The notes: generated from the letters alone by a model not told the origin. DNA of 64,000 bases from an uncultured Anaerolineaceae bacterium (GCA_964492745.1 CAZBLT010000003.1:36653-100652); one strand, 5' to 3'; counted from the stretch's first letter, positions 9,588 through 31,634 are shown. Numbers and translations: made by a program.

Positions 9588-12086
9588 CTAGCCGGCAGGC
9601 ATGGCTTCGGCGGGTTCCTCCTCACCTTCCATTTCGCCCATCGCCTGCCGCAGCACGATTTGCTCGCCTTCGACGTCCACGAGAATGGTGTCCCCCTGCT
9701 TGAACTCGCCGGACAGCAGTGCGTCTGATAGGCGGTCCTCGACCTCGCTCTGGATGACCCTCCGCAGAGGCCGGGCGCCCATCTCGGGATCGTAGCCCAT
9801 GTCCGCAAGCAGCGTGCGGGCTACGCCGGTTGCCTGGAGCGTAATCTCATGTTCCTCGAGGCGCCTGGAGACCTTCCGCAGCTCGAGATCGACAATCTGA
9901 CGGATCTGCTCCTTATTCAGGGCGTGGAAGACCATGATGGAGTCAACCCGGTTGATGAACTCTGGCCGGAAGACCTTCTTCAAGGCCTCCATCAGCTTCT
10001 TGCGCATCTCCTCGTACTCGAGCCGCTCCTCGATCTGCTCATCCCGCGGCAGGTCGAAACCAAGCTGGGATTGGCGGCGGATCATGTCGGCGCCGACGTT
10101 GGAGGTCATCACAATGATCGTGTTGCGGAAATCGACTTTCCGTCCCCGGGCATCCGAGAGGTGCCCCTCCTCCATGATTTGCAGCAGCATATTGTGCGCT
10201 TCGGGATGCGCCTTTTCGACTTCGTCGAAGACCACAATCGAGTAAGGGCGGCGGCGGATGGCTTCGGTCAGTTGACCGGCATCCTCGTAGCCAACGTAGC
10301 CTGGCGGCGCCCCCACAAGTCGGCTGACGGTGTGTCGCTCCATCAGCTCCGACATGTCGATTTGCACTAGCGCCTCCTCAGAGCCGAAGAGAAACTCGGC
10401 CAGCGCCTTGGTCAATTCCGTCTTGCCCACGCCCGTCGGCCCCAGGAAGATGAACGATCCGATGGGCCGCTTGGGATCCTTCAATCCTGCGCGGGAGCGG
10501 CGCACCGCCTTGGCAATTGCATCGATGGCTTCGTCCTGGCCGACGATGCGTTCGTGCAGTGCCTCTTCCATCTTCAGGAGACGTTCTGACTCGGCCTGCG
10601 CCAGTTGCATCACTGGCACGCCGGTCCACATCGAGACCACTTCGGCGATGTCCTCCTGCGTCACCTTCGGGCCGCTCTCGCTGCGATCCCAAGCGCTCCG
10701 CAGTCGCTCGAGCTGTTCTTCCAGCTCCGCTTCGCGGGCCGCCAATTGCTCGGCATCGTCGTGACGGTCCTCCTCGATCGCCAGAGCATGCGCCTCGCGG
10801 ACTTCTCGCAGTTCCCGGATCACTTCCCGCAAGCTCACCGCCTCCGGACTCTTGTACATGCGCACCCGCGAGGCCGATTCGTCGATCAGATCGATGGCCT
10901 TGTCCGGGAGATAACGGTCGGTGACATAGCGGGCCGACAGATGCGCGGCCGATTCAATGGCTTCATCCGTGATGTGCAGCTTGTGATGCTCTTCGTAGGG
11001 CCTGCGAACGCCGCGCAGGATGTCGATCGTTTCCTCGATCGTCGGCTCTTCAACCATTACCGGCTGGAACCGGCGTTCCAAGGCGGCATCGTTTTCGATG
11101 TACTTCCGGTACTCGTCCAGCGTGGTCGCGCCGATGACCTGCAGCTCTCCCCGCGACAGTGCCGGCTTGAGGATGTTAGCGGCGTCCACAGACGAGCCCG
11201 CCGAGCCCGCACCCACAAGCATGTGCACTTCGTCGATGAAAAGAATGGCCTCGGAGGATTTCAGCTCGTCGATCACGCGCTTCAAGCGTTCCTCGAATTG
11301 ACCGCGATACATCGTCCCCGCCACCAAAGAGCCCACATCCAATTGCAGAACGCGTTTGCCGATCAACGGGCCAGGCGTCTCGCCTGCCACAATCCGCTGC
11401 GCCAGGCCTTCCACGATGGCCGTTTTTCCGACCCCTGGCTCGCCGATCAAGGCTGGATTGTTCTTCGTGCGGCGCGCGAGGATCTGGATCACACGCTCGA
11501 TCTCCATCTCCCGCCCGATCACCGGATCGAGCTTGCCCTCTTCGGCCAGCAGCGTCAGATCAGTGGCCAACTGGTCCACCAGAGGCGTCTTGGGTTGTTC
11601 CTTGCGTTTAGCAGCTGCGGAGTGCTGCGTCATGCGCCGGGTGGGACTCTCCTGAAGCACGCGGCGGGTCTGCCTGCGGATCTGCTCGGGAGTGATGCCC
11701 AACCGGCGGAGTACATCGATCCCCACGCCTTCGCCCTGGCGCACCAGGCCCAGCAGCAGGTGTTCCGTGCCGATGTAGTGGTGGCCCATGCGGCGGGCCT
11801 CTTCGATTGCAGTCTGTAGGACTTGCTCCGTCGCTGGGGCGAGCTCGATGCGCCCGCCCGTATGCCGCCCGACGCCCGTCAGGCGTTCGACCATCTCCTT
11901 GACCCGGGCCGGCTCCAGGCCCAGCTCACGCAACACCCTGCCGGCAACCCCGCCTTCCTCGCGCATTAGGCCGAGCAACAAATGCTCGGTCCCGATATAG
12001 TTATGATGTAGCCTCTCCGCTTCCTCATGCGCTAGGCTCAAGACTCGCCTTGCTCGCTGTGTGAAGCGCTCCATCTTATCCGCCAC
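9588..12086 (-). CDS. clpC: ATP-dependent Clp protease ATP-binding subunit ClpC
   Basis: Two Clp_N repeats ([11 protein letters not shown], twice) and two AAA+ modules ([15 protein letters not shown] and [14 protein letters not shown]) joined by a short UVR-type linker. GTG 12086 has GGAGGGT 5 nt upstream. Confidence 0.95.
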
Positions 12087-12227: not shown

Positions 12228-13805
12228 TCAGGAGTTCTCCTGTCCTCCTTCTTCGGGAGGTGTCTCCGCAAGACTCTCGGGAGGGTCAGGCTCCGGCGGC
12301 AGTTCTGCCTCCGGAGGAGCGTCCACCTCGGAGGCGCCTCCCCTCTCCTCTTCGGCTTCCGCCTCTTCGACCGGGCTCTCCACCGCCATGGCTTCGGCTT
12401 GTGCTACCGGAGGCTCGGCCTCCGCCTCGGCCGACTCGGGCTGCTCCTCTACTGAGGCCTCTGGCTCGGACTCGGTAATTTCCTCCGCCGGAAGCTCCGC
12501 TTCGGGAGCCACATCCTCGGCCACCTCCTCCAGTGCGGCATCGAAGTCTTCCACTTCGTCGGTGGCTTTTAACGCCACGCCTTCCACACCTTCCCGTTCG
12601 AGCTCCGCCGCAGCCGATTGCCAATCCACGTCGGCGTACTCAGGCGAGTCGACCCGTTTCAGGCTGAGGCCAATGCGCCGGCGTTCCCGGTCGATCTTGA
12701 TGAGGCGCATGGCGACATCCTGTCCCTCATGCACCACCTCGCGCGGATGCTCAATGCGGCTATCGGAGAGCTCAGAGATGTGAATCAAGCCCTCAATCTC
12801 ATATTCCCCGGTACCCTTCAAGGCTGCGAAGGCGCCAAACTTAGTCAACTTGGTGATCGTGCCCTCCACCAATTGGCCTTCCTGCAACCCATCTACAATC
12901 TCGTCCCATGGATCGGGCTCAAGCTCACGCAAGGAAAGGCTGATGCGCTTGCGCTCCGGGTCCACGCCCAAGATCTTGACCTGGACCTGCTGCCCCACTT
13001 TGAGGATATCGCGGGGGTTTTCGACCCGCTTCCAGGACAACTCGGAGACGTGTACCAAACCGTCCGCGCCGCCGATATCCACGAAGGCGCCGAAATCTGC
13101 GAGGCTGATGACGGTGCCGGTGCGCACCTCGCCGAGCTCGAGCTCGGCAATCAGGCGTTCCTTGAGTGCGTCGCGCGACTCCCGCGCCGCCGCCCGCTCG
13201 GAAAGGATCAGGCGGTTGCGCCGGCGGTCGACCTCGATCACGCGAGCGATGATCGGCTCCCCGACCATTTCGCCCCAGCGCTGGTCCGGCGTTTCGCCCT
13301 CAGCGCGCCGCCGTCGCGATAGGCTCACTTGGGAGGCAGGGATAAAGCCACGCAGCCGCCCCAGCTTCACGATCAGGCCGCCCTTGTTATAGCCAGAGAT
13401 CGTGCCTTCGTAGGCTTCCCGGCTTTCGAGCAGCCGTTCGGCCTCGCGCCAATCCTGCTCCTCCTCGGCCCGGTTAATCGAGAGCACGATGGTCCCGTCC
13501 CGCCCCCCGGACCGCACGACGTAGACCTCGATCTCCTTGCCGACCTCCAGGTCCGCCCGCAGTTCTTCCGGCAATTGCTCCACCTCGCGCGTCGGGATTA
13601 CGCCCTCCGATTTGGCGCCGATGTCGACCAGGATGTCACTGTCTGTAATTCTGGCGATGGTTCCGGTGCGAATATCCCCGCGTCGAGGGGTCTCCAGCTC
13701 GTAGGCCTCGCCCTCGAGCAATGCATCCATCGGGTGCTCGCTCGCCTTTTGGGCCTCCGCTTCGATAAACGTCTCTTCCCCGATGGTGTTCTCGTTGGAC
13801 TCCAT
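12228..13805 (-). CDS. rpsA: 30S ribosomal protein S1 with a long acidic C-terminal tail
   Basis: Repeated S1 domains (G.I..I...G.FV.. patterns) followed by about 110 aa of E/A/P-rich tail. ATG 13805 (MESNEN) has GGGAG upstream. Confidence 0.9.
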   Translation of the reverse strand: MESNENTIGEETFIEAEAQKASEHPMDALLEGEAYELETPRRGDIRTGTIARITDSDILVDIGAKSEGVIPTREVEQLPEELRADLEVGKEIEVYVVRSGGRDGTIVLSINRAEEEQDWREAERLLESREAYEGTISGYNKGGLIVKLGRLRGFIPASQVSLSRRRRAEGETPDQRWGEMVGEPIIARVIEVDRRRNRLILSERAAARESRDALKERLIAELELGEVRTGTVISLADFGAFVDIGGADGLVHVSELSWKRVENPRDILKVGQQVQVKILGVDPERKRISLSLRELEPDPWDEIVDGLQEGQLVEGTITKLTKFGAFAALKGTGEYEIEGLIHISELSDSRIEHPREVVHEGQDVAMRLIKIDRERRRIGLSLKRVDSPEYADVDWQSAAAELEREGVEGVALKATDEVEDFDAALEEVAEDVAPEAELPAEEITESEPEASVEEQPESAEAEAEPPVAQAEAMAVESPVEEAEAEEERGGASEVDAPPEAELPPEPDPPESLAETPPEEGGQENS

Positions 13806-13840
13806 GAATCTCTTGTTCTCCCTTGGTTGGCGTAGCACGC

Positions 13841-18661: not shown

Positions 18662-20554
18662 CTAATCCCGGATCGCCGGCAAGACGACAGTGAAGGTGGT
18701 TCCTTCGCCCAAACGAGAGTCCACCCAGATGCGGCCGTTGTGTTGCTCGACGATCGACTTGACGATCGAGAGGCCCAATCCCGTCCCCGGCGCATCATTG
18801 GGGATATTGCTGGCCCGGAAGAACTTGTCGAAGAGGTAGGGCTGGTCGGCCGGCGGGATGCCGGGGCCGGTATCCCGCACCTGCAGGATGACCTGATCGC
18901 CCTCTGCGCCCGCCTCCAGGCAGACCCGCCCGCCCGTTGGCGTATACTTAATGGCGTTTTCGAGAAGATTGCCGATCATCTGCCGCAATCGCAGTGGGTC
19001 GCCATGCACATGCGGCAAGCCGTTCTCGATTTTGGCCTCCAGCTCCAGGCCCTTGGCATCGGCGAGAGCGCGAATGCTCTCAACGGCATAGCTGGCCAGC
19101 GTCGCAAGCGGCGTATCCTCCTTGGTGGTATCCAGCCCAGCTTCGATTCGGCCCAGATCCAGCAAATCGGTCACCAGCGCGGTGATCTGTTCCACGCTTA
19201 TGCGCACACGTGAAAGGAACTGGGCCTGCGCCTCCGTCAGCGGCCCGGCGCGCTCGATCAACTCTGTGTATCCCAGAATGGCGGTGAGCGGTGAGCGCAG
19301 GTCATGCGAAACCGTGGTAACGAATTCGGACTTGATGCGGTCGAGCTCTTTCAAGTGTGTGATGTCATGCAGGATCACCGCATGCCCCACACCATGGATT
19401 GGGCTACGAACCGCCGCCAGCACTCTGCCGTCCTCCAGCTCAATATCGTCCCGCCTTGTCGAGCCGCCGGGTGCTCTCAGCAATTCCAGCAACGCGGCAT
19501 GATCGAAGACTTCCGCTGCCGAGCAGCCCAAGAAGTTCCCCTGCAGGTCGAAGATCTCCTGGGCCGCGCGGTTGGCCAACAGAAGGCGGTTCTCCTCGTC
19601 TACGACGATCACGCCATTTTGGCTTTGGGCCAATATGGTTTCGAGTTTGGCCCGCTCGTCCTCTGACTCCTGGTACAAGCGGGCATTCTCCACCGCGATG
19701 GCGGCGTAGTCGGCCATCGCCATCAATAGGGTCACGTCCTCCCGAGTCAAGAGTTTTCCGGCCTTGCGGTTATCCACTCCAAGCACCCCAATCGTCTTTC
19801 CCCGTACCTGCAGCGGCACATAAATCAGGGAGTGGACCAGATAGGCGGTCTTGATCTTCTGAGGCGACGTCTCGTCGAGCAGAATCGGCTCGCCCTTTTC
19901 GAGCACCTGGCCTGCCAACGAATCCTGAACCTGCAGCCGGAAGGTGTGCGCGAAATCTTCGTCAAAATTCTTGGAGGCCCGCATGTAGAGCTCGCCGCTG
20001 GCCTCGTCCACCAGCAAGAGGCTCCCTTCTTCCGCTCCGGTGAGCCGCACCGCGGCTTCCACGACGGTTGTGAGCACCACATCCAGGTCCAACACCGCGG
20101 TCACGGTACGGCCGATCATGGCCAGTGTCTCGAGTTCCTGGACGCGTCGGGCTAGTGTGCCTTCCTCCGTTCCCCTGCCCTCGCTCCTGGCCTCCAGCGC
20201 CCTCCGCACCGCTTGAAGCAGCTCATCCGAGGCGAATGGCTTCACCAGGAAATCACAGGCACCGGCGCGCAGCGCGGCTAAGATCAACTTATCGGAGCTC
20301 TCGCTGCTCATTAGAATGACCGGAATGCCGGGGAGGGCGGTTCGGAGGCGCCGGATAAGATCAAGGCCCGACAGACCAGGCATCTGTTGATCGGTGATCA
20401 CCAAGTCGGGCTTCAAGTCCTGGGCCAACGCTAAGGCCGACATCCCATCACCGACACGGCGAACCTGATAGCCAGCAGGCCGGAGAATCCTCTCCTCTAC
20501 AATCTGTGCGATGTCTCGATTATCTTCGGCGACGAGAATCAGCTTAGCGCTCAT
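18662..20554 (-). CDS. Hybrid sensor: receiver-GAF-PAS-histidine kinase (HisKA + HATPase_c)
   Basis: N-terminal REC (LILVAEDN...DLVITDQQMPGLSG), a GAF region, H-box SHDLRSPLT, an N-box, and G-box GTGLGLSIVK. Start placed at ATG 20554. Confidence 0.9.
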   Translation of the reverse strand: MSAKLILVAEDNRDIAQIVEERILRPAGYQVRRVGDGMSALALAQDLKPDLVITDQQMPGLSGLDLIRRLRTALPGIPVILMSSESSDKLILAALRAGACDFLVKPFASDELLQAVRRALEARSEGRGTEEGTLARRVQELETLAMIGRTVTAVLDLDVVLTTVVEAAVRLTGAEEGSLLLVDEASGELYMRASKNFDEDFAHTFRLQVQDSLAGQVLEKGEPILLDETSPQKIKTAYLVHSLIYVPLQVRGKTIGVLGVDNRKAGKLLTREDVTLLMAMADYAAIAVENARLYQESEDERAKLETILAQSQNGVIVVDEENRLLLANRAAQEIFDLQGNFLGCSAAEVFDHAALLELLRAPGGSTRRDDIELEDGRVLAAVRSPIHGVGHAVILHDITHLKELDRIKSEFVTTVSHDLRSPLTAILGYTELIERAGPLTEAQAQFLSRVRISVEQITALVTDLLDLGRIEAGLDTTKEDTPLATLASYAVESIRALADAKGLELEAKIENGLPHVHGDPLRLRQMIGNLLENAIKYTPTGGRVCLEAGAEGDQVILQVRDTGPGIPPADQPYLFDKFFRASNIPNDAPGTGLGLSIVKSIVEQHNGRIWVDSRLGEGTTFTVVLPAIRD

Positions 20555-20620
20555 GTGCAATCACCAGATGATCCCATGGGGGTTGGACAATCTTTGGATG
20601 GCTGGGCAGTCGGGGGAGGA

Positions 20621-21799
20621 TTAGTTCGCGGCCTGGCCCTTAGGCTCGGCTTTGAGCACCTCGGACAGCTTCTTAATGACCGCCTCCAGATCCCGCTGCA
20701 CCGTTTCGAGTTCTGTCCCAATTTCGGCCTCAGGCTTTCGGCTGCGTAATTCGTGGATTTCCGCTCGCGCAGCTCTGAGGCTGCGGTGCATCTCCTCGAG
20801 CCAATCAGGGTCCACGCGAATACCTTCCGCCACCCCCCGGATCTTGCTTTCGAGCATCCGCGCCCGTTCTTCGAGTGCCTGGAAAAGCCGGGCATTCACC
20901 AGCGAGATGGAGGCGTAATCTGCGACCGCCTCCAGCATGACCAGTTGACGCTCCGTAAAGGGCTTGGGGCTCTCGCGGGCCACGCAGATCACGCCAATGG
21001 GCTGGTCCTTGACCTTGATGGGAGCGATCAACGCCGCCGCCGCGAATTGTGAGAGCTTGAATTTGGACAGTCCCTCACCATGGATCGCCAGTGCCTCCCC
21101 CGAGAGCATGACGAGCGAACTCACGCCGTCGTCCCAAGGCTGCTGCAAGCGACCACGAATCCCGGCCGGGAGGTTCTGCTCCGCACGCAAGTACAGCTCG
21201 TCGGTGCCTTCCTTGCGAAGCAGCACCCAGCCGATATCGGCCTCCGTGACATAGAGGCTGCCCTCAATCAGCTTGCCGAAAAGTTGGCCTTGATGGGTTG
21301 TGGATGTGACCGTCTTCCCGAGGCCGAAGAGCGTGGTTAGCTCGCGCACTCGCCGCTCCAATTGGCGGTTGGATTCAGCCAATTGCCGGGCCAACTGGCG
21401 ATGCTCCCGGCGCAGCCGAATTTCCTTAACGACCCGCTCGAGTGCGGCCACAACCTCAGCCTCTCGCAAGGGCTTGACCAGGTAATCATGGGCGCCGAGC
21501 CGGAAGGCTTGAATGGCGTCGTTCTCCATGCCCTTGGGCGCCGTGACCAGCATGGGCACGTCCGTTCCTTGCGAGCGGAGTGCCACCAGCAAATCCTTGC
21601 CGCTGAGGCCCGGCAACGTCAGGCTGGCGATGATCAGGTCGGGGGCGAACTGGAGTGCCTGCTGGATGGCCGAACCCGCATCGGCCGCCGTGGCAACCTG
21701 GTACCCAAGCGGTTTGAGGACTTCCCGCGCCAAGAGATCCAGCGTTTCCGGGTCTTCATCGACGATGAGAACGCGTTCCAGGTTCATGGCCTCCGTCAT
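20621..21799 (-). CDS. Response-regulator receiver + GAF domain protein with a C-terminal coiled coil
   Basis: REC (VLIVDEDPETLDLL..DLIIASLTLPGLSG) followed by GAF. The start is ambiguous (ATG 21799 or ATG 21787). Confidence 0.8.
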   Translation of the reverse strand: MTEAMNLERVLIVDEDPETLDLLAREVLKPLGYQVATAADAGSAIQQALQFAPDLIIASLTLPGLSGKDLLVALRSQGTDVPMLVTAPKGMENDAIQAFRLGAHDYLVKPLREAEVVAALERVVKEIRLRREHRQLARQLAESNRQLERRVRELTTLFGLGKTVTSTTHQGQLFGKLIEGSLYVTEADIGWVLLRKEGTDELYLRAEQNLPAGIRGRLQQPWDDGVSSLVMLSGEALAIHGEGLSKFKLSQFAAAALIAPIKVKDQPIGVICVARESPKPFTERQLVMLEAVADYASISLVNARLFQALEERARMLESKIRGVAEGIRVDPDWLEEMHRSLRAARAEIHELRSRKPEAEIGTELETVQRDLEAVIKKLSEVLKAEPKGQAAN

Positions 21800-21896
21800 G
21801 CAGCTATGATAGCATGGAATGCTTTCCCCAGCGCTGCCGCAAAGGCTGCAGAGCTGCACGGATGATAGAATCAAAGGTGAGAGAAACCACCTTTCC

Positions 21897-21926
21897 TTGA
21901 CGTTCTCTCCACCCGACACGTACAAT
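21897..21926 (+). promoter_or_regulatory. Sigma70-type promoter for the J-protein gene
   Basis: TTGACG (21897-21902), an 18-nt spacer, then TACAAT (21921-21926). The inverted repeat AAAGGTG-n8-CACCTTT lies immediately upstream of the -35. Confidence 0.5.
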
Positions 21927-21946
21927 CAACGATACAAGGCAGCTCT

Positions 21947-22861
21947 ATGGAATACAAGGATTACTATAAGATCCTCGGCGTTGACCGCAACGCAAGCCTG
22001 GACGAGATCAAGCGCAAATATCGTCAGCTTGCGCTCAAGTACCATCCCGACAAGAACCCTGATGACAAGCAGGCTGAGGAACGCTTCAAGGAAATCAACG
22101 AGGCCTATGAGGTCCTGGGTGATCCCGAGAAGCGCGCCAAGTACGACCAGCTCGGCTCATCCTACCGCGCCTGGGAGCGGACGGGGCGCGACCCCGGCGG
22201 CTTCGACTGGTCGCAATGGGCTTCCGGCTTTCCTGGCGGCGGCGTGCGGGTGGAGATGGGCGATCTCGACGACATACTTGGCGGCTTCTCGGATTTCTTC
22301 CAGGCCATCTTCGGCGGGATGGGCGCCCAACGCACCGCATCCCGCGGTGGACGGGGGCGCGATATCGAGCAGCCGGTCACCATCAGCCTTGCCGAGGCAT
22401 ACAAGGGCACTTCGCGGACCTTTCAGTACAACGGCAAACGTCTTGAGGTGAAGATCCCGCCCGGGGCAAAGACCGGCACCAAAGTGAGGGTGAGCGGCAA
22501 GGGGCAGAAGGGCACCCGCCAGGCCGGCGACCTATACCTGGTGGTCCAGGTGGAACCCGATCCGCGCTTTGAGCGCAAGGGCGACGATCTGTACACTGAT
22601 GTTGAGGTCGACCTATACACCGCCGTTCTCGGGGGTGAGATCAAGGTCCCCACCCCTGGCGGCAGCGTCGTGCTGACCATCCCTGCCGGAAGCCAGCCCG
22701 GGCAGAAGTTTCGCCTTAAGGGCAAGGGCATGCCCAAACTTCGGCAACGGAGCCAGCACGGTGACCTTTACGCCCGCCTGCACGTCCGGTTGCCCAAGCA
22801 ACTCGGTTCAGAAGAACGAGAGCTCTTCGAGAAGCTCGCCAAGATGCAGAAGCGCGGCTAG
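21947..22861 (+). CDS. cbpA: DnaJ-class co-chaperone without a zinc finger (CbpA type)
   Basis: J domain DYYKILGV...KYHPDKNP, a G/F-rich linker, and two C-terminal beta domains. There is no CxxCxGxG repeat. Confidence 0.8.
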
Positions 22862-22916
22862 CTCCCAAGTTCTCGCCGCCGCGCTTTTCTTGCCGTGTAA
22901 AGGATTGGTACCATCC

Positions 22917-24122
22917 ATGAAGAAATGGCCTCTAGTTTCGGTTGCTGCCGCTCTCTCCCTCGCCGCCATTGCCTGCAGCCTGCAGCCCATCCCGGTCGAG
23001 AGTCCGACCCCGACGCGCTCCCCGGTCCCCCCCCTTCCCACAGCCGCACCGCCGGTTAGCCCTCCACCCTCCACTTCCGCAGCGGGAGGGGGGCTTCCCG
23101 TGGCCGGCGATTTGGTCGCACTCTACGAACGCGTCAGCCCAGGCGTGGTCACCATCTGGACCTTTGAGGAGCTCGGCGCCCCCCACGAGGCAAGTGTGCC
23201 CAGCGGACAGGGATCGGGCTTCGTGATCGACATACAAGGGCATATCGTCACCAACCAACATGTGGTCAACGGCGCCAGCGAGATCGAGGTGGATTTCCCC
23301 TCCGGGATCAAGGCCTGGGCCCGATTGCTCGGCACCGATCCGGATTCCGATCTGGCCGTCCTCGAAGTGGATGTCCCTGAGGAGACCCTGGTACCCCTAT
23401 CGTTGGGCGATTCGGACCAGGTGAGAGTGGGGCAATTTGTGGTGGCCATCGGCAATCCCTTCGGCCTTACCGGAACCATGACCGTGGGCGTGGTCTCTGC
23501 GATTGGCAGGACGCTGGAGTCGGAGCGGCTGGCGCCCGGCGGGACGCCCTTCTCCGCTGGCGATCTGATCCAGACGGACGCTGCCATCAATCCAGGAAAT
23601 TCCGGCGGGCCCCTCCTGAACCTGAGCGGCCAGGTCATCGGCATCAATCGCGCCATCCAGACCGAGATATTCACGGTCGAGGGCAGCGCCGCCAATTCTG
23701 GTGTAGGCTTCGCAGTTCCAGTGAATCTCCTCCGCCGGGTAGCGCCCAGCCTTATCGCAAGCGGCAGCTATGATTATCCCTACCTGGGCATCTCAAGCCT
23801 GGATGACGACCTATGGAACCTGAAGACTATCGAGGCGCTGGGGCTCCCGCCAAATGCGCTCGGGGCCTATGTGACTGAGGTGGTTCCTGGCGGCCCGGCC
23901 GACCAAGCCGGACTGCGCGGGGGTCGCCGCGAGACCGCCATTCCGGGTCTCCTCGCCGGCGGCGACCTCATCATCGCCATCGACGACCAGCCCGTAAAGA
24001 AATTCGCCGATTTGCTGTCCTTCCTCTTTAAGTACACCGAACCTGGCCAGCAAGTCGTCCTCACCGTGATCCGCGAGAATGAGGAGGTGGACATACCCCT
24101 GATGATCGGTGCTCGCCCCTGA
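22917..24122 (+). CDS. htrA: HtrA/DegP-family serine protease with one PDZ domain, predicted lipoprotein
   Basis: Signal peptide with lipobox (LAAIAC). Catalytic triad contexts are TNQHVV, DSDLAVLEV and GNSGGPLLN. C-terminal PDZ. Start moved to ATG 22917. Confidence 0.9.
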   Translation: MKKWPLVSVAAALSLAAIACSLQPIPVESPTPTRSPVPPLPTAAPPVSPPPSTSAAGGGLPVAGDLVALYERVSPGVVTIWTFEELGAPHEASVPSGQGSGFVIDIQGHIVTNQHVVNGASEIEVDFPSGIKAWARLLGTDPDSDLAVLEVDVPEETLVPLSLGDSDQVRVGQFVVAIGNPFGLTGTMTVGVVSAIGRTLESERLAPGGTPFSAGDLIQTDAAINPGNSGGPLLNLSGQVIGINRAIQTEIFTVEGSAANSGVGFAVPVNLLRRVAPSLIASGSYDYPYLGISSLDDDLWNLKTIEALGLPPNALGAYVTEVVPGGPADQAGLRGGRRETAIPGLLAGGDLIIAIDDQPVKKFADLLSFLFKYTEPGQQVVLTVIRENEEVDIPLMIGARP

Positions 24123-24171
24123 GTTCATCCGGCGTCCATTGGAGAGCTTCCCAGACGGAAGGAGGTCTGCC

Positions 24172-25278
24172 ATGCTAAGCGAGCAAATCCTCCAGGATCT
24201 GATCGCCTTCAAGCCCGGGGCACCCGTTTTAAGCGTATATCTCGACACCGATCCCACACAACGCACCACCGAAGAAACCAAGCTCATCCTTCGCCAGCTC
24301 ATCAAGCCCTTCGAAAATGAAGTCCCCGAGGACGTCGAGGCGATCTTGCGCTTTGCCGAACACGGCTTCGACTGGTCCGGACGTGGGCTGGCGCTCTTCT
24401 CCTCCGTGCCAGCCGAATTCTTCCGCTCTATTCCCCTGGGGCTGCCCGTGAGGAGCCGGGCCCGGCTCCTCGATCGCCCCTACGTCAAACCACTCGCAGC
24501 GCTGCTGGAGAATTTTGGTCATTACGGGGTGGCGCTTGTCGATCAGCAAAACCTGCGACTCTTCCGTTTCCACCTCGGCGAGCTGGTCGAGGAGCAGAAA
24601 CACAGCGGGAAGCCTGTTCGACACATGAAGCGAGGCGGAGGATCGCAGGCAGCCGGTCGCCGCGGCGGTGTGGCGGGCCTGAAGCGCGCCGCAGAGGAAA
24701 CCGTGGAGCGCAATCTGCGGGAAGCCGCCCGCCAGGCTGCCCGCTTCTTCGAGCGCCAGGCCATCCGCCGCGTTCTCATCGGAGGGACCGAAGAGAATAC
24801 CCAGCGATTCTTCGAGCAACTACCCAGGCGCTGGCAATCCCTCGTCGTCGGCACGTTCCCGATCGAGATGAACGCTGGCCACGCCCAGGTGCTTGAGAAG
24901 GCCTTGACGACCGCACAAGCCGCCGAGAGAGCGAAGGAGTCCCGTCTGGTGCAGGCGGTCATCACGGCCGCGGCGAAGGGGCAGGAAGGCGTTGTCGGGC
25001 TGGATGATACGCTGGAAGCGGTGCGCGCTGGCAAGGTGCAAACCCTGGTGCTCAGCGACGGCTATCGCGCTCCAGGGTACCGCTGCATGCATTGCGGCTT
25101 CCTGACGGCCCAAGACCTGGAATCCTGTCCCTTCTGCGGGAACCCCATCGAGCAAATCCCGGATGCCGTGGAGTTGGCCGTCCGGCGCGTGCTTAGCGAC
25201 GGTGGCGAGGTGGAGATCATCCCCACGAACCCTCAGCTCGAAGCGGCAGGGCGGATTGGCGCGCTGCTGCGTTACTAG
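24172..25278 (+). CDS. Bacterial eRF1/Pelota-like (aeRF1-superfamily) protein with a GGGSQ loop and a zinc-ribbon insert
   Basis: The C-terminus ...VVGLDDTLEAVRAGKVQTLVLS...GRIGALLRY resembles eRF1/Pelota domain 3. A central RGGGSQ loop lies at 24634-24648. CMHCG..CPFCG lies at 25084-25137. GGAAGGAGG SD precedes ATG 24172. Confidence 0.7.
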   Translation: MLSEQILQDLIAFKPGAPVLSVYLDTDPTQRTTEETKLILRQLIKPFENEVPEDVEAILRFAEHGFDWSGRGLALFSSVPAEFFRSIPLGLPVRSRARLLDRPYVKPLAALLENFGHYGVALVDQQNLRLFRFHLGELVEEQKHSGKPVRHMKRGGGSQAAGRRGGVAGLKRAAEETVERNLREAARQAARFFERQAIRRVLIGGTEENTQRFFEQLPRRWQSLVVGTFPIEMNAGHAQVLEKALTTAQAAERAKESRLVQAVITAAAKGQEGVVGLDDTLEAVRAGKVQTLVLSDGYRAPGYRCMHCGFLTAQDLESCPFCGNPIEQIPDAVELAVRRVLSDGGEVEIIPTNPQLEAAGRIGALLRY

Positions 25279-25320
25279 AGTGTCGGCCGCCTGTGCGGGA
25301 TGTCACCCCATAGACACGAA

Positions 25321-25360
25321 ACGGCTCCCACCGAACATGGTGGGAGCCGTCGCCTTTTAT
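25321..25360. terminator. Strong bidirectional terminator between convergent operons
   Basis: ACGGCTCCCACC-gaacat-GGTGGGAGCCGT is a perfect 12-bp stem, followed by CGCCTTTTAT. Confidence 0.8.
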
Positions 25361-25392
25361 CCGTTAGTGTGCGTTCTGTCTCTCGTGCCCGC

Positions 25393-26052
25393 CTACTGGC
25401 CAAAGAGATCCCGCTCCAAGGCAAGGATATCGTTGGCCAGCACTTCCAAGTCCCGACGGGCCGCAAAATCGTTCGTCTCGATTTCCTGAAGGGCGAGCGC
25501 CAGCCGCTCCCGAAGGCTGGCGATGGTCTTGGCGGCCGCACCCGTCAGGCGGTGTTCGAGCCTGGCCAAGCGCTGATCCGTGACCTCCAGCGCAGCAGCC
25601 GCCTTCACCGGCTCTTCCTGCATCATCTCGAGTTGGGCGGTGCTGACATCCACGAGCACCTGGAGCAGCTCTTGATGATTTTCCAATTCCTCGACCTGGG
25701 CCTTCAAAAGCCTGTTCTCCTCCTTCAAGAGCCGCAAGGTTTCGACTTCAGTCTGGAGCGACTCGACCCGTTCCTGCAGGCCAGCCATGTCGTATCGCAG
25801 CTCGCGGAGAGCCTGGTCCTGGGGGACGACGCGAAGATACCAGGTCGCGCCGGCTCCGATAGCAACCAATCCCACGACCAAGACCGCCCAGAGCAGGACC
25901 TTGCGCAGCCTGCGAGAGCTCGGAGGCGCGGCCGGCGCCTCGGGCGAAACGGCTTCCGCTACCGCCTCTTCCGGAGACATGTCTTCTTGCTGTTGTGGGA
26001 ATTCTTCGTTGTTCATGGCTTCTTCCTCACCGTCCGGGGATCGCCTTTGCAT
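25393..26052 (-). CDS. Single-pass membrane coiled-coil protein (HemX-like architecture), third of three
   Basis: Acidic N-terminus, TM segment VLLWAVLVVGLVAIGAGATWYL, then heptad-rich sequence. Lies 13 nt after the previous gene. Confidence 0.6.
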   Translation of the reverse strand: MQRRSPDGEEEAMNNEEFPQQQEDMSPEEAVAEAVSPEAPAAPPSSRRLRKVLLWAVLVVGLVAIGAGATWYLRVVPQDQALRELRYDMAGLQERVESLQTEVETLRLLKEENRLLKAQVEELENHQELLQVLVDVSTAQLEMMQEEPVKAAAALEVTDQRLARLEHRLTGAAAKTIASLRERLALALQEIETNDFAARRDLEVLANDILALERDLFGQ

Positions 26053-26065
26053 CCCGCGCCTTTCC

Positions 26066-26863
26066 CTAGGGTTGTTCGGTCATCTCCAGCAGCAACTTCC
26101 AACTCAGCTCCAGTTCCTCTTCGGCCAAATTGCGCTGAGTGAACACGGCTTCGAGGGCGGCGGCGAGATGCCCACGAAGGGCCGCACTGTTCTCATCCTC
26201 GCCATCCTCGCCCAACAGGAGATCAGCAATCTCCAGCGCGGCTTGGATATCCTCCGAGGCCAGACCAAAATTGCCCTGCTCAATCCACAGGCGGCTGCGT
26301 GTAAGCAAGGCCATAAGGCGCATCAACTCTAGTTGCCGTGCGATACGCTGTGCAGGGATCTCCTCGGCCTCCAATGCCTCTTCAATCGCCGCCAGCCGGT
26401 CCGAGAGGGCGCCGAATTCGCTCTCAAGACCCTCGAGCTCCGTGGCTCTCTCGGAGAGATCATCCAGCGAGGCGCTCAACTCTCCAAGCTGGCGCTTCGC
26501 CTCCTCCAGGCCTGCCTCCAAGACGGCAAACTGCTCCGCCTGGACTGCAAGCCTGCCCTCGAATTCGGCCGCGCGCGCCGCCTCCGCCTGGCTTGCGCTG
26601 CGGCGCTCGGCCTCGATCGCGTTGAGGGCCGCCTCGAGATCATCCAGCCTGGCCCCATACTCCTGGACTGGCATGACAAGATCCCGATAGAGTCTGCGCG
26701 TCCCCAGGAAGATTCCAGCGCCGAGCGCCGTGCCAATCAGGACCACCAGCAACATCCGGGCGGCCCAGCGCAAGACACGTGCCACCACGCTCGGCCCTCG
26801 GGGTGCCCCTTCCTGCGGAGTTTGCGGCTCGCGCGAGATCTCTTGAGTGTCCGCCTCCGTCAT
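26066..26863 (-). CDS. Single-pass membrane coiled-coil protein (HemX-like architecture), second of three
   Basis: TM segment MLLVVLIGTALGAGIFLG followed by a long coiled coil. The start ATG overlaps the upstream stop (ATGA at 26860-26863). Confidence 0.6.
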   Translation of the reverse strand: MTEADTQEISREPQTPQEGAPRGPSVVARVLRWAARMLLVVLIGTALGAGIFLGTRRLYRDLVMPVQEYGARLDDLEAALNAIEAERRSASQAEAARAAEFEGRLAVQAEQFAVLEAGLEEAKRQLGELSASLDDLSERATELEGLESEFGALSDRLAAIEEALEAEEIPAQRIARQLELMRLMALLTRSRLWIEQGNFGLASEDIQAALEIADLLLGEDGEDENSAALRGHLAAALEAVFTQRNLAEEELELSWKLLLEMTEQP

Positions 26864-27555
26864 GGGCTCATCCCTCCCGTCAGGAGCAGCTCCGCCAGCA
26901 ACTGGCTGAGGGCTTCGAAGAAATTGACCGTCTGCGCTGCCTGATCTCGCAGGCGTTCGACTTCGGACTCCATGGCGCGCACCTGCTCGACTGCCTGGTT
27001 GACCTCATCGAGGGAGGCCTGCACTTCTGACTCCACAGCCGTCATACGGCCGCTGAGTCCCTCCACCGCCTTGAGCCGCTGGTCCAGCCGCTGCAGCGTG
27101 GAGGCAACCTCCCCCACGCGCACCTCAAGCGCCCGAACCTCTGCATCCAGGTTTCGGACGGAGGGGTGGCGCGCAACGCTTAGAGTGCGGTTCACTCCTA
27201 CCAGGATGGCCAGCGTGAGGGCCAGCGACAGGATCACGCTTATGGCCGCCGTCAGCAGGGAGATCCAAAGCGTCTGAGTGCGGGTGAACCCGGAGGGGGC
27301 GGGTGGCGACGTCTCTTTCTCTGCCACCGCCACCTCGATACGCTCGGGTTCAGGCGCAGACTCCAGCGTCAGGAACGGGCGGAGGCGCGCCAGCGTCCTC
27401 TCCCCCAAACCTGGGACGTCGGCCAATTCCTCCAACGAAGCGAAAGGCCTGGCATCGATGATCCTTTGAGCCAGGCGCTCCCCAATGCCGGGTAGCGCCT
27501 CCAAGGCCTCCAAACCGGCTGTGTTGGGATCTATGGGCATGAACTCATTTTCCAT
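26860..27555 (-). CDS. ComEA-like helix-hairpin-helix domain + TM + coiled-coil protein, first of three
   Basis: The N-terminus IDPNTAGLEALEALPGIGERLAQRII...LADVPGLGERTLARL is tandem HhH. TM segment LWISLLTAAISVILSLALTLAILVGV, then coiled coil. ATG 27555 has AGGTGG 8 nt upstream. Confidence 0.65.
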   Translation of the reverse strand: MENEFMPIDPNTAGLEALEALPGIGERLAQRIIDARPFASLEELADVPGLGERTLARLRPFLTLESAPEPERIEVAVAEKETSPPAPSGFTRTQTLWISLLTAAISVILSLALTLAILVGVNRTLSVARHPSVRNLDAEVRALEVRVGEVASTLQRLDQRLKAVEGLSGRMTAVESEVQASLDEVNQAVEQVRAMESEVERLRDQAAQTVNFFEALSQLLAELLLTGGMSP

Positions 27556-27620
27556 TTTCGCTACCACCTGCCGGGTGACGGGCCGGATTCCCGCCAGCTA
27601 GGTTCTAGTGCATTATAGCC

Positions 27621-28310
27621 CTAATAGAACGGCCAATTCTCTCCCTGATGGGAATAGATTTCCACTCGCGGCCGGCGGATGAACCTCCTTACGAGGAGCA
27701 TCCCGAACAGGAACCCCCCGATGTGCGCCCACCAGGCGATGCCGCTCATGAACTGGTTCGCGAGCAGACCGTTGGCCAATTGCGAGAAGAACCACATGCC
27801 CAGGTAGAAGAAAGCGGGAATATCCACGAACCAGGGGAGGAAGAAGAACGGTATGAAGGTCACCACCCGCGCAGCGGGGAAGAGGACAAAGTACGCTCCC
27901 AGCACCGCCGCCACCGCCCCGCTCGCGCCGACGGTCGGAACGCCCAGCTTCGGCGAGAAGAATACATGCGTCAGCGCCGCAGCCGTGCCTCCCAATAGGT
28001 AGAACACCATATAACGCAGATGCCCCATGCGGTCTTCGACATTGTCCCCGAAGATGTAGAGCGTCCACATGTTGCTGATCAGGTGGAACCAATTGCCGTG
28101 CATGAACATCGAGGTGAAGACCGTCAGCAGGCTCATCGGTCTGAGGAGTGAGAAGTCCGCGGGCACGAGCCCGAAGTAGCGTACGAGCAGATTGAAGCCG
28201 CGTTCGCTCAGCGAGGATTGCAGCAAGAACACCAGCGCGTTCAAGCCGATCAGGATGTAGTTCACGACCGGCAGCGATCGCGAACGGATCGTATCCCGCA
28301 GTGGAAACAT
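27621..28310 (-). CDS. Rhomboid-family intramembrane serine protease
   Basis: Multi-pass TM protein with catalytic GASGAVAAVLGAY and HIGGFLFG motifs. ATG 28310 has GGGAG 5 nt upstream. Confidence 0.9.
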   Translation of the reverse strand: MFPLRDTIRSRSLPVVNYILIGLNALVFLLQSSLSERGFNLLVRYFGLVPADFSLLRPMSLLTVFTSMFMHGNWFHLISNMWTLYIFGDNVEDRMGHLRYMVFYLLGGTAAALTHVFFSPKLGVPTVGASGAVAAVLGAYFVLFPAARVVTFIPFFFLPWFVDIPAFFYLGMWFFSQLANGLLANQFMSGIAWWAHIGGFLFGMLLVRRFIRRPRVEIYSHQGENWPFY

Positions 28311-28330
28311 GGAATCTCCCGGCGCGGTTT

Positions 28331-28366
28331 CGAGAAATACAATGGGCGGCTTACGCCGCCCATTGT
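28331..28366 (-). terminator. Terminator/attenuator hairpin after hsp20, only about 20 nt before the rhomboid start
   Basis: Minus strand reads ACAATGGGCGGC-gtaa-GCCGCCCATTGT (perfect 12-bp stem) followed by ATTTCTCG. Confidence 0.6.
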
Positions 28367-28398
28367 ACCTCAGAGATCGTTTCAAGCCTTGGCGCGGT

Positions 28399-28794
28399 TC
28401 AGCGGACTGAGATCTCGATCCGCTTCGGCCTGGCCTCCTCGACCTTCGGAATGCGCACTCGCAGCACGCCGTTCTCGATCTCGGCCTCTACCTTCTCAGC
28501 CTCTACCGGGTCCGGAAGCCGCAGGCGCCGGGAGAAGGAAAGCGGGCAGCGCTCACGTAGCAAGAGACCCGGCTCTTCCTCGGTCATCTCCACCTCGGCC
28601 CTCAGCGTGACCTCATTATCCAGTATCTCGACTTTCAGATCCTCCGCTTTCAGACCAGGGACATCGGCGAGGATCACATAGGCATCATCCTCCACGCGAA
28701 CATCCACGGGAAGCCGCCTCCCGCCATTGAAGGCCACGCGCTCTGCGCGCCGCAGGCCTCGGTAGCCGGCCGGTGCAATGTAGTAGCGAACCAT
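28399..28794 (-). CDS. Hsp20/alpha-crystallin family small heat-shock protein
   Basis: 131 aa. The alpha-crystallin pattern is present (YVILADVPGLKAEDLKVEILDNEVTLRAE...GVLRVRIPK). GGAGG lies 9 nt upstream. Confidence 0.9.
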   Translation of the reverse strand: MVRYYIAPAGYRGLRRAERVAFNGGRRLPVDVRVEDDAYVILADVPGLKAEDLKVEILDNEVTLRAEVEMTEEEPGLLLRERCPLSFSRRLRLPDPVEAEKVEAEIENGVLRVRIPKVEEARPKRIEISVR

Positions 28795-28806: not shown

Positions 28807-28917
28807 CCGTTAACGCAACTTGGTTGCCTCGAATGCCCACATGCTATCCGCCCCGCATTAGAGTTTAGAAAATCGGATATACGAAATCCATTAACTAGGT
28901 TGCCAACCTTCCGTTAA
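28807..28917. promoter_or_regulatory. Repeated/palindromic operator-like motifs in the hsp20-clpB divergent region
   Basis: The 7-mers CCGTTAA (28807-13 and 28911-17) and GGTTGCC (28822-28 and 28898-904) each occur twice. The nested palindrome TTAAC-ta-GGTTG-c-CAACC-ttcc-GTTAA spans 28891-28917. Confidence 0.4.
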
Positions 28918-29027: not shown

Positions 29028-31634
29028 ATGAATCTGGAACGGTATACCCAGAAGGCGCAGGAAGCGCTGCTGGATGCACAATCGCTGGCGCAGGGTCACC
29101 AGCACCCCGCGATCGAACCCTTGCACCTTATGCTTGCGCTCGTCCGGCAACAGGACGGGATCGTCCCGGCGATCGTCAGCCGCATCGCCGGCAGCCCGGC
29201 GATGCTGCGCGCCGATCTCGAGAAGGAGGTCGCAGCCCGGCCGAAGATGTATGGTGGTGCCGGGCAACCTGGCCTTTCGCGGCAGCTCGCGGACGTGCTC
29301 CAGGACGCTGAGACTCGCGCCGCCAACATGAAAGACGAATATGTCTCGACCGAGCATCTACTGCTCGCTCTGGCCTCCGGCCCGGAGGCCCAGCGCTTGA
29401 AGTCCTTCGGCATTACACCGGAGAAGATCCTCGATGTCCTGACAGAAATCAGGGGCTCGCAACGGGTTGTGAGCCCAACGCCGGAGGATACCTTCCAGGC
29501 CCTCGAAAAATTCGGACGGGATCTTACCCAGCTCGCCCGCCAGGGGAAATTGGACCCCGTGATCGGGCGCGATGAAGAGATCCGCCGTGTTATCCAGGTG
29601 ATCTCGCGACGCACCAAGAACAACCCCGCACTCATCGGAGAGCCCGGTGTGGGCAAGACCGCCATTGTTGAAGGCCTCGCTCAGCGCATTGTCAATGGCG
29701 ATGTGCCCGAAGGTCTTAAGAACAAACGCATCGTGCAACTCGACATCGGGGCCCTGGTGGCCGGCTCCAAGTACCGGGGCGAGTTCGAGGAGCGTCTTAA
29801 GGCGGTGCTCAAGGAAATCACCGACTCGGCGGGCGAGATCATCCTCTTCGTGGATGAGCTGCACACCGTCGTTGGAGCCGGCGCCGCAGAGGGCGCTATG
29901 GACGCCGGCAACATGCTCAAACCCATGTTGGCCCGGGGCGAGCTCCATATGATCGGCGCCACGACCCTGGATGAATACCGCAAGTACATCGAGAAGGATG
30001 CTGCGCTCGAACGCCGCTTCCAGCCGGTCTTCGTGGCCGAGCCGGGCGTTGAAGATACCATCAGCATCCTGCGTGGTCTCAAAGACCGCTACGAAGTCCA
30101 CCACGGCGTGCGCATTCAAGATAGCGCCGTGATCGCCGCAGCCACACTCTCTCACCGCTACATCACTGACCGCTTCCTCCCCGATAAGGCCATCGACCTG
30201 ATCGATGAGGCTGCCGCGCGCCTGCGGACCGAGATCGACTCAAAGCCTCAGGCGCTCGATGAGGTCGACCGCCAGATCATGCAGCTTGAAATTGAGCGCG
30301 AGGCCCTGAAGAAAGAGAAGGACAAGGCCTCCCGCGAGCGGCTGGAGCGCATTGAGCAGGAGTTGGCCGAACTCCGGGAGGAATCGTCCCGCCTGACCGC
30401 ACGCTGGCAGGCTGAGAAAGACGTCATCGCACAGATCCGGGCCACCAAGGAAGAGATCGAGAAAACCCGCCACCAGATCGAGCGGGCCGAGCGCGAGGCC
30501 GACCTCGAACAAGCCGCCCGCTTGCGCTACAGCACACTGCACGATCTCGAAGCGCAGCTCACAGAGCTTGAGCAGCGCCTGCGCGAGATTCAAGGAGACA
30601 GCCCGCTCCTGAAGGAGGAGGTGGATGCCGAAGATGTGGCCGCCGTCGTCTCACGATGGACCGGCATCCCCGTCTCCAGATTGCTGGAAGGCGAGATGGA
30701 GAAGCTGCTCCGCATGGAGGAGCGCATTCACCAGCGCGTGGTTGGACAGGATGAGGCCGTTCAGGCCATCGCCAACGCGGTTCGCCGCTCGCGCTCCGGC
30801 TTGCAGGACCCCGATCGTCCGATTGGATCCTTCATCTTCCTGGGCCCCACCGGTGTTGGAAAAACCGAGCTGGCCCGAGCGCTGGCTGAGTTCCTCTTCG
30901 ACGATGAGCGGGCGCTGGTGCGCATCGACATGGGCGAATACCAGGAGAAGCACACCGTCTCCCGCTTGATCGGCGCTCCGCCGGGCTATGTGGGCTATGA
31001 GGAGGGCGGCCAGCTGACCGAAGCCGTGCGCCGCCGGCCTTATAGCGTGATCTTGCTGGATGAAATCGAGAAGGCTCATCCCGAAGTGTTCAATGTGCTG
31101 CTGCAGCTCCTGGACGACGGCAGGCTGACCGATGGCCAAGGTCGCACGGTCGACTTCCGGAATACGGTCGTGATTATGACCAGTAACCTTGGGACCGAAC
31201 TCTGGGACGACCCTGCCCGTTCGGCAGAGGCCACAGAGGAGGAAGTGCGTCAATTGCTCACACGCCACTTCCGCCCCGAGTTCCTCAACCGCATCGACGA
31301 GGTCATCATCTTCCACCGCCTGACCCGGCAGGACCTGCGCCAGATCGTCGACATCCAGCTTCGGCGTGTGCAGGCCAGACTGGAGGAGCAGGGGTATGCG
31401 ATGCAGGTGAGCGAGCAAGCCAAGGACTATCTTGCCGAAAAGGGCTACGACCCAGTTTACGGTGCGCGTCCGCTTAAGCGCACCATCCAGCGCGAGCTTC
31501 AAGATCCACTCGCTCTGAAGATCCTGGCTGGAGAATTCGCCCCTGGCGATACGATCTTCGTGGATCACGGATCCGAGGGCTTGGCCTTCTCGGCACAGCC
31601 TCAGGTGGAGACCGCCATGGGCGAAGCGGCCTGA
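29028..31634 (+). CDS. clpB: ATP-dependent chaperone/disaggregase ClpB
   Basis: Clp_N domain, NBD1 [15 protein letters not shown], a long coiled-coil middle domain, and NBD2 [25 protein letters not shown] precedes ATG 29028. Confidence 0.95.

Follow-up and report, generated by a model that had tools for sequence, protein, structure and literature searches.

Genes and signals of the operon

A 64,000-nucleotide (nt) stretch of DNA from an uncultured Anaerolineaceae bacterium (GCA_964492745.1 CAZBLT010000003.1:36653-100652), referred to below as the window, contains an operon of three genes on the plus strand; positions are counted from the first letter of the window. The genes encode a J-protein, an HtrA-family protease and a 368-amino-acid (aa) protein, in this order. 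The 368-aa protein has the fold of the aeRF1 superfamily and is a member of baeRF-1 family 10. It is probably a stress-linked A-site factor of the Balon type, which would pause or hibernate ribosomes, and is encoded by the last gene of a conserved operon. The features of the operon are as follows.

21866-21884, plus strand: upstream promoter element, degenerate copy TAGAATCAAAGGTGAGAGA, in register with the element of the orthologs
21897-21926, plus strand: sigma-70-type promoter, TTGACG-18-TACAAT
21947-22861, plus strand: class B (CbpA-type) J-protein, 304 aa
22846-22893, plus strand: hairpin followed by UUUUCUU, over the stop codon of the J-protein gene
22917-24122, plus strand: HtrA-family serine protease, lipoprotein, 401 aa
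24172-25278, plus strand: baeRF-1 family 10 protein (aeRF1 fold, Balon-like), 368 aa, with a GGAGG Shine-Dalgarno sequence upstream
24628-24678, plus strand: Gly/Arg-rich loop of the middle domain, K153-RGGGSQAAGRRGGVAG-169, at the position of the GGQ loop of eRF1
25084-25137, plus strand: Cys4 zinc ribbon, C305-x2-C308...C319-x2-C322, inserted in the C-terminal (eRF1 domain 3/Pelota-like) domain
25321-25360, plus strand: intrinsic terminator that closes the operon

An initial annotation of this DNA had described three genes, a promoter, a terminator, a GGGSQ loop and a Cys4 ribbon, and all of them are found where it had placed them.

Family and fold of the third protein

The 368-aa protein matches Pfam PF18854 (baeRF_family10) at residues 103-248 with 127.5 bits (cut-off, 27.1 bits; E = 6e-37), and matches baeRF families 3 and 2 more weakly. 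Its scores for other models of the superfamily are below the respective cut-offs: 23.4 bits for Pfam eRF1_3 (25.8), 52.8 bits for aRF1 (TIGR03676, 234.7) and 12.7 bits for pelota (TIGR00111, 177.65). Three NCBIfam 'ribosome hibernation factor' models match the protein over its full length at sub-threshold scores, in the order MSMEG_1130 > Rv2629 > AOC03_06830. Membership in acVLRF-1, which was considered because the host belongs to the Chloroflexota, is rejected by the hidden Markov model (HMM) score (Pfam acVLRF1, PF18859, 15.2 bits, under the cut-off of 27.1) and by the domain architecture.

In a sequence search of the PDB, Balon homologs are the top matches (Msmeg1130, 6e-9; Rv2629), and a search of the PDB with the family profile gives Msmeg1130 at 1.7e-15, aRF1 at 2e-7 and eRF1 at ~1e-4. 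The AlphaFold2 (AF2) model, built with 47 homologs, has a predicted local distance difference test score (pLDDT) of 87 and a predicted template modeling score (pTM) of 0.71. Together with Foldseek, it gives the three-domain architecture of the aeRF1 superfamily, with an N-domain of ~100 aa, a middle domain with an RNase-H fold and a Pelota-like C-domain. The top Foldseek match in the PDB is ribosome-bound Msmeg1130/Balon (8v9l_z, E = 3.3e-25, template modeling (TM) score 0.74), and 8rdw_B, 8rd8_B and 8v9k_z are matched at E ~1e-18 with TM scores of 0.62-0.64. Msmeg1130 is followed in the ranking by aRF1, P. urativorans Balon, Rv2629, eRF1 and Pelota, with TM scores of ~0.5 for aRF1 and eRF1 and of 0.26-0.41 (E ~1e-10) for Pelota. 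The aeRF1-superfamily fold proposed in the initial annotation is thus borne out by Pfam, by the PDB sequence search and by the AF2 model with Foldseek, and the comparison by HMM and structure places Msmeg1130/Balon closer than aRF1/eRF1 and Pelota.

The protein has 1269 close homologs in Anaerolineales/Chloroflexota. The best 120 of these 1269, from which the identity and motif figures are taken, are 56-92% identical to it and are nearly all 368 aa long. Ortholog counts refer to 80 species-representative genomic loci of Anaerolineales (labeled L0xx). A NIKS-like motif is found neither in the query nor in any of the 80 orthologs. The invariant K106-P107 is aligned with the H-P of Msmeg1130 (FIHPL), the D27-P28 loop is aligned with a D-P of Msmeg1130, both being candidates for the HP motif in the extended decoding-center loop of Balon-type factors, and the C-terminal ...GALLRY tail is common to the 368-aa protein and Rv2629.

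Balon, Msmeg1130 and Rv2629 are hibernation factors, for which binding to the A site has been visualized by cryo-electron microscopy (cryo-EM); the statement of the initial annotation that bacterial aeRF1-like families are not experimentally characterized is therefore outdated (Helena-Bueno et al. 2024, PMC10901736). EF-Tu is seen with Balon and Msmeg1130 on the ribosome, Balon, Msmeg1130 and Rv2629 lack NIKS and GGQ, and Msmeg1130 and Rv2629 were assayed for translation of green fluorescent protein alongside RaiA (PMC10901736). The Msmeg1130 sequence, most of whose length was rebuilt from the printed alignment, matches PF18854 at 125 bits, while Rv2629 belongs to family 2. Family 10, to which the window protein belongs, thus already counts a hibernation factor proven by experiment among its members.

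Conservation of the loop and the zinc ribbon

Within the Gly/Arg-rich loop, GGGSQ corresponds to residues 155-159 (nt 24634-24648). Residues 152-166 are disordered or have a low pLDDT in the AF2 model, and lie ahead of a long helix (residues 168-195). Among the 80 orthologs, G146 and K153 are conserved in 80, G155 in 78, G156 in 76, G157 in 70 and S158 in 77; further along the loop, G162 is conserved in 79, R163 in 76, R164 in 74, G165 in 73 and G166 in 75. Q159 is the least conserved core position of the loop, being kept in 66 of the 80 orthologs and replaced in the other 14 (17.5%) by T (7), S (5), K (1) or L (1). The variants without this Gln (GGAS[TS]F, GGGST, GAGSS and others) are still encoded within J>HtrA>baeRF operons, and a neighbor-joining tree constructed with the loop masked indicates that Q159 was lost at least eight times independently, which makes it unlikely that catalysis strictly requires this Gln. 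The substitution pattern points to strong constraint on the entire loop, within which the Gln is not indispensable. The GGGSQ loop was a central point of the initial annotation: the Gly/Arg-rich loop is strongly conserved and its Gln is aligned with that of GGQ in the eRF1 profile alignments, but the Gln itself is not essential.

Four profile alignments to eRF1 set Q159 opposite the Gln of GGQ, but in the alignment to aRF1 it is the second motif, GRRGG, that falls opposite GGQ. Because these alignments disagree, the homology of Q159 is ambiguous. The common pattern of the close homologs is K-x-GGGSQ-xx-GRRGG together with four Cys, and the loop length is nearly constant within the Anaerolineales clade. 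A distant family-10 set of 121 representatives (28-50% identity) mostly has a loop of the form K-Q-GGW-[SA]-[QA]-x-R-[FY]-Q-R, in which the GRRGG insertion is absent. The Gln is variable and often absent in these distant loops, and their length varies, with occasional large insertions.

The zinc ribbon proposed in the C-domain is invariant, because C305, C308, C319 and C322 are present in all 80 orthologs. CxxC...CxxC is also present in all of the best 120 of the 1269 close homologs and in nearly all distant family-10 representatives. The ribbon is aligned with an insertion of aRF1 (4af1), and the C-domain insertion (residues 302-329) is located at the same site as that of Balon.

Conservation of the operon in Anaerolineales

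Operon composition was counted by tblastn with the neighboring genes of the window in the 65 of 80 loci that have at least 3.5 kb upstream. The order J>HtrA>baeRF is found in 41 of them and J>baeRF in 8; 3 have HtrA>baeRF, and 13 have baeRF by itself. Such a frequency of J>HtrA>baeRF goes far beyond chance. The string is kept at loci where the flanking synteny is gone (L027, L041, L042, L051, L055, L065 and L078, for example), and the gaps between its genes are short (median for HtrA-baeRF, near 50 nt).

The J-protein matches Pfam DnaJ (E = 1.4e-30) and DnaJ_C (E = 3.4e-48), contains the HPD motif, and lacks the zinc-finger domain and Cys, which is the class B/CbpA-type architecture. It scores below the cut-offs of the NCBIfam CbpA and DnaJ models (207.5 bits against 403 for PRK10266). 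By its sequence, it is assigned to class B, with orthology to CbpA not demonstrable. The HtrA protein matches Pfam Trypsin_2 (E = 2.7e-34), contains one PDZ domain (PDZ_2), and scores 277.9 bits with the NCBIfam Do-family model (cut-off, 416). Its translation shows a lipobox (...LAAIAC) within an N-terminal signal peptide, as well as the motifs of the His/Asp/Ser triad, and it is predicted to be an exported, extracytoplasmic lipoprotein. Direct hand-over of released nascent chains to HtrA is physically implausible, because HtrA is an exported lipoprotein; the three products would therefore be linked by regulation, at the level of a regulon, and not by a physical relay.

The promoter is the sole sigma-70-like match in 21500-25700 (mean of shuffles, 0.5), and neither a promoter nor a terminator inside the operon is matched in the signal scan. 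Of 52 J-first loci, 44 have CTTGAC[TG]-N17/18-TA[CG]AAT no more than 150 nt 5' of the gene that opens the operon, as do 4 of 14 baeRF-first loci. When 48 orthologous promoters are anchored on the -35 hexamer, an upstream element of the form GTTAGAAT-N3/4-(T)AT(T)AGA comes into register at a fixed distance of ~15 nt 5' of this hexamer. Its core word is present in 34 of the 48 promoters, as compared with 20% of shuffles, and the element is seen in most orthologous loci (L006, L067 and L078, for example), including four baeRF-first loci. Even with three mismatches allowed, the ortholog consensus TTAGAATCATATTAGA is not matched anywhere in the window; the element of the window is a degenerate version at the conserved position. 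TAGART-N20-28-TTGAC occurs only once in the 64-kb window, at the operon promoter. Possible roles of the upstream element are those of an activator site, an operator or a UP-like element. The CIRCE and HAIR heat-shock operators were rejected as candidates, with no match in the window at up to three mismatches.

The hairpin over the stop codon of the J-protein gene (free energy, -20.5 kcal/mol; z = -1.9) had been thought to partly uncouple this gene from the others. It is present but weak, and a comparable hairpin with a T-run is found in only 2 of 58 orthologous loci, which rules out a conserved attenuator, and it is probably not functional. The terminator has a 13-bp stem (25321-25350) with 9 GC pairs, followed by a T-tract; its fold has a free energy of -26.9 kcal/mol (z = -5.7), and none of 200 shuffles is as stable. 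A terminator-like hairpin is found 3' of the baeRF gene in 30 of 77 loci. In one subclade, the J gene has a 5' leader of ~100 nt (L041:2133-2161, L078:3637-3664 and L077:3642-3669, outside the window), in which CCUCUGAAG is paired with CUUCAAGG in a hairpin of ~-8 kcal/mol that masks the AAGGA Shine-Dalgarno sequence. The layout resembles that of an RNA thermometer, with unremarkable z-scores and slight covariation of the stem.

Stress-related neighbors of the operon

The operon is located in a cluster of proteostasis and signaling genes, whose members in the window are as follows.

9588-12086, minus strand: ClpC-like AAA+ ATPase
18662-20560, minus strand: hybrid REC-GAF-PAS-HisKA-HATPase kinase (Pfam), which pairs with the REC-GAF gene
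20621-21802, minus strand: REC-GAF protein (Pfam), divergent from the operon
27621-28385, minus strand: rhomboid protease
28399-28794, minus strand: Hsp20 small heat-shock protein (Pfam HSP20, E = 6e-24), convergent with the operon
29028-31634, plus strand: ClpB (Pfam ClpB domains), divergent from Hsp20

The REC-GAF/kinase pair is located directly upstream in most loci, including 10 loci in which it adjoins baeRF and J and HtrA are absent, and represents the most constant neighbors of the operon across Anaerolineales. The REC-GAF protein has no recognizable DNA-binding domain. Of 70 loci, 41 encode Hsp20 on the strand opposite to baeRF, no more than 6 kb downstream of it; in 9 loci the two genes are immediate neighbors, 81-111 nt apart. 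The linkage to stress genes (J-protein, HtrA and Hsp20) that the initial annotation had pointed to is thus conserved in the neighborhoods of the homologs, with the trio in 41 of 65 loci and Hsp20 in 41 of 70. Contigs of distant family-10 members are mostly too short to inform on neighborhoods; the neighbors seen there are a Clp ATPase directly downstream (three contigs), an extracytoplasmic function (ECF) sigma/anti-sigma pair, RelA/SpoT and HicAB.

Comparison with related factors

The baeRF-1 clade was defined by Burroughs and Aravind (2019, PMC6514570). The window protein combines the three aeRF1-type domains with a Gln in the loop and with a zinc ribbon inserted where it canonically lies in the C-domain, exactly the set of features highlighted for family 10 (PMC6514570). 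The baeRF C-domain contains either a zinc ribbon or its two-strand remnant (PMC6514570). The Anaerolineales clade differs from the rest of family 10 in that G replaces the family-typical W (GGGSQ instead of GGW[SA]Q), that the loop contains an insertion of ~8 residues (xxGRRGGxAG), and that the J>HtrA operon context is specific to it.

The best structural and sequence matches are the Balon-type proteins (Msmeg1130, 8V9J/8V9L; Rv2629, 8V9K; P. urativorans Balon, 8RD8). They share with the window protein the absence of NIKS, a compact N-domain, a C-domain insertion at the same site and an Hsp20/DnaJ stress neighborhood; Balon genes are 'typically' located in stress operons that include Hsp20, DnaK and DnaJ (PMC10901736). 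The window protein is similar to aRF1/eRF1 in the order and folds of its domains and in having a Gly-rich loop with Gln at the GGQ position, and its zinc ribbon is as in archaeal aRF1. It differs from them in lacking the GGQ tripeptide, NIKS and YxCxxxF, in having a shorter N-domain, and in being bacterial, where RF1/RF2 serve termination. With Vms1/ANKZF1 and the archaeal and actinobacterial-chloroflexi VLRF-1 proteins, for which a role in quality control of stalled ribosomes has been proposed, it shares the GGxSQ motif with a displaced Gln and a longer catalytic-site loop. Unlike acVLRF-1, it keeps the N-terminal domain, and the accessory domains of Vms1 are absent. It resembles Pelota/Dom34 in superfamily and overall shape, and possibly in a non-catalytic role in the A site, but the structural match is weaker, the HMM is unmatched, and loop A is not identifiable.

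Proposed role and alternative explanations

From the similarity to Balon-type proteins and the stress neighborhood, we infer ribosome binding, dependence on EF-Tu, a non-catalytic mode of action and induction by stress. A single conserved sigma-70-type promoter would drive J-protein>HtrA>baeRF, within an Anaerolineales proteostasis cluster that contains the divergent REC-GAF/histidine-kinase pair, the convergent Hsp20 gene and the nearby ClpB gene. Upon proteotoxic or heat stress, the baeRF protein would move into the A site of the ribosome irrespective of mRNA, probably bound to EF-Tu through its C-terminal domain. The Gly/Arg-rich loop would then be placed beside the peptidyl-transferase center, and the ribosomes would be paused or hibernated, such that fewer new chains are made while the co-expressed chaperones and envelope protease handle the damage. 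An activity that is non-catalytic, or at most weakly catalytic, is best supported by our analysis.

Several observations weigh against this role. The NCBIfam scores of the 368-aa protein are far from those required by the hibernation-factor models (100.6, 66.4 and 50.7 bits for NF052288, NF052289 and NF052287, with cut-offs of 480, 320 and 330), and its identity to Msmeg1130 is only ~20%. Unlike Balon-type proteins, it has a GG...Q loop, with Gln in 82% of the orthologs (GGxSQ), and its Cys4 zinc ribbon is intact, like that of archaeal aRF1, where Balon has a degenerate beta-hairpin. No HPF/RaiA gene is located near baeRF. In class-I release factors, the glycines weigh more than the Gln in catalysis, and loss of the Gln is therefore no proof of inactivity. 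In addition, the catalytic Gln is absent in most baeRF-1 families, but is retained in others, 'most notably family 10', which has been regarded as a potential peptidyl hydrolase (PMC6514570).

The alternative to which several of these observations point is that the GGxSQ loop acts at the peptidyl-transferase center and hydrolyzes peptidyl-tRNA or cuts the CCA end of tRNA, which is the end cleaved by Vms1. This activity is unlikely. It would be exerted on stalled ribosomes independently of stop codons, and the chains released during stress would be passed to the J-protein/Hsp70 system. The glycines of the motif are near-invariant (78 and 76 of 80) and the Gln is kept in 66, Q159 is matched to the GGQ Gln in the four eRF1 profile alignments, and the loop length is almost fixed in the Anaerolineales clade. 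Co-transcription with a J-protein and the presence of a Clp ATPase beside some distant members are also consistent with rescue, and the GGxSQ form is that of aVLRF-1/acVLRF-1 (PMC6514570). However, at least eight independent substitutions have turned the Gln into T, S, K or L with the operon kept, its homology is ambiguous owing to the pairing of the aRF1 GGQ with the second motif, GRRGG, loop length varies across family 10 with Q often absent, and the Pfam acVLRF1 score is only 15 bits against a cut-off of 27. Moreover, the nearest characterized relative, which scores as the same Pfam family, is reported to be a hibernation factor that inhibits translation, and not a release factor (PMC10901736). 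Catalytic rescue, which is the idea of the initial annotation and had been proposed earlier for family 10 (PMC6514570), is thus less likely than a Balon-type function. There is only a small chance that the family-10 proteins of Anaerolineales are stress-induced, EF-Tu-delivered, stop-codon-independent peptidyl-tRNA hydrolases or CCA-end nucleases. If they are, they would stand as a living intermediate form that connects aRF1 of archaea with the inert hibernation factors of the Balon type, and as the bacterial equivalent of the Vms1-type release of nascent chains, co-regulated with chaperones.

A non-catalytic function like that of Pelota/Dom34, in which ribosomes with an empty A site or damaged ribosomes are split or recycled during the recovery phase with EF-Tu or another GTPase or ATPase partner, is very unlikely. 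The aeRF1/Pelota fold is confirmed, with Pelota matches at E ~1e-10, the C-terminal domain that binds translational GTPases is conserved together with the ...GALLRY tail as in Rv2629, and a Pelota/RRF-like analogy has been raised for Balon in a 2026 preprint (10.64898/2026.07.03.736309). Nevertheless, structural similarity to Pelota (TM score, 0.26-0.41) is well below that to Balon, the NCBIfam pelota score is 12.7 bits against 177, and no gene for an ABCE1-like or Hbs1-like partner is located near baeRF in the window. It is also improbable that the adjacency of J, HtrA and baeRF is inherited synteny without functional coupling, with baeRF acting autonomously. Such autonomy would agree with the 13 of 65 loci in which baeRF is without J or HtrA, 10 of them beside the REC-GAF/kinase pair, with the varied neighbors of distant family-10 members (Clp ATPase, ECF sigma factor, RelA and HicAB), and with the function of HtrA outside the cytoplasm. 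It is contradicted by the persistence of the trio beyond the flanking synteny, the short spacers (median near 50 nt between HtrA and baeRF), the lack of an internal promoter or terminator match, and the presence of the same promoter and upstream element before J-first and some baeRF-first loci.

Much of the background to a Balon-type role is already catalogued, namely the loop Gln of family 10 (PMC6514570) and the location of Balon genes in Hsp20/DnaJ stress operons (PMC10901736). In the literature searched, family 10 is treated by name only in the 2019 analysis, and no experimental study of it under this name came up. The locus is solid but largely expected, and does not represent a new kind of system. 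The new and incremental findings are the conserved Anaerolineales operon with its cis-element, the linkage to a two-component system and Hsp20, the evidence that the Gln is dispensable, and the finding that Msmeg1130 scores as family 10. With the Balon-type factors, a third class has recently been added to the ribosome hibernation factors of bacteria, and the locus is a clean test case for which baeRF-1 families are inert A-site plugs and which, if any, still hydrolyze peptidyl-tRNA. It combines a tightly conserved clade, the most release-factor-like features (a GG...Q loop and a zinc ribbon), an operon of heat-shock type whose promoter and cis-element are defined, and natural Gln-less variants that serve as ready-made mutants. 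Its practical value lies mainly in providing a well-documented example together with the evidence for Gln dispensability.

Other features of the window

The whole-window scans with Rfam (gathering thresholds) and for tRNA and transfer-messenger RNA give no match in the 64 kb. At the 5' end of the REC-GAF gene (window 21790-21830), TATGATAGCATGGAA is conserved on the plus strand in many loci; on the minus strand this site reads TTCCATGCTATCATA, which is a likely -10 region. The REC-GAF gene probably starts at an internal ATG (MNLERV...), which is preceded by GGAGG. In the spacer between Hsp20 and ClpB lies ATTAGAGTTTAGAAAAT (28857-28873), a sequence that recalls the TTAGA words in the upstream element of the operon. 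Three genes on the minus strand at 25393-27567 are convergent with the operon and syntenic in closer relatives. Two of them encode coiled-coil proteins with N-terminal transmembrane-like segments and no real Pfam family, and the remaining one encodes a ComEA-like helix-hairpin-helix protein with a coiled-coil tail. Next to the ClpC-like gene is a gene for a protein that resembles ribosomal protein S1 and has four S1 domains (12228-13838, minus strand).

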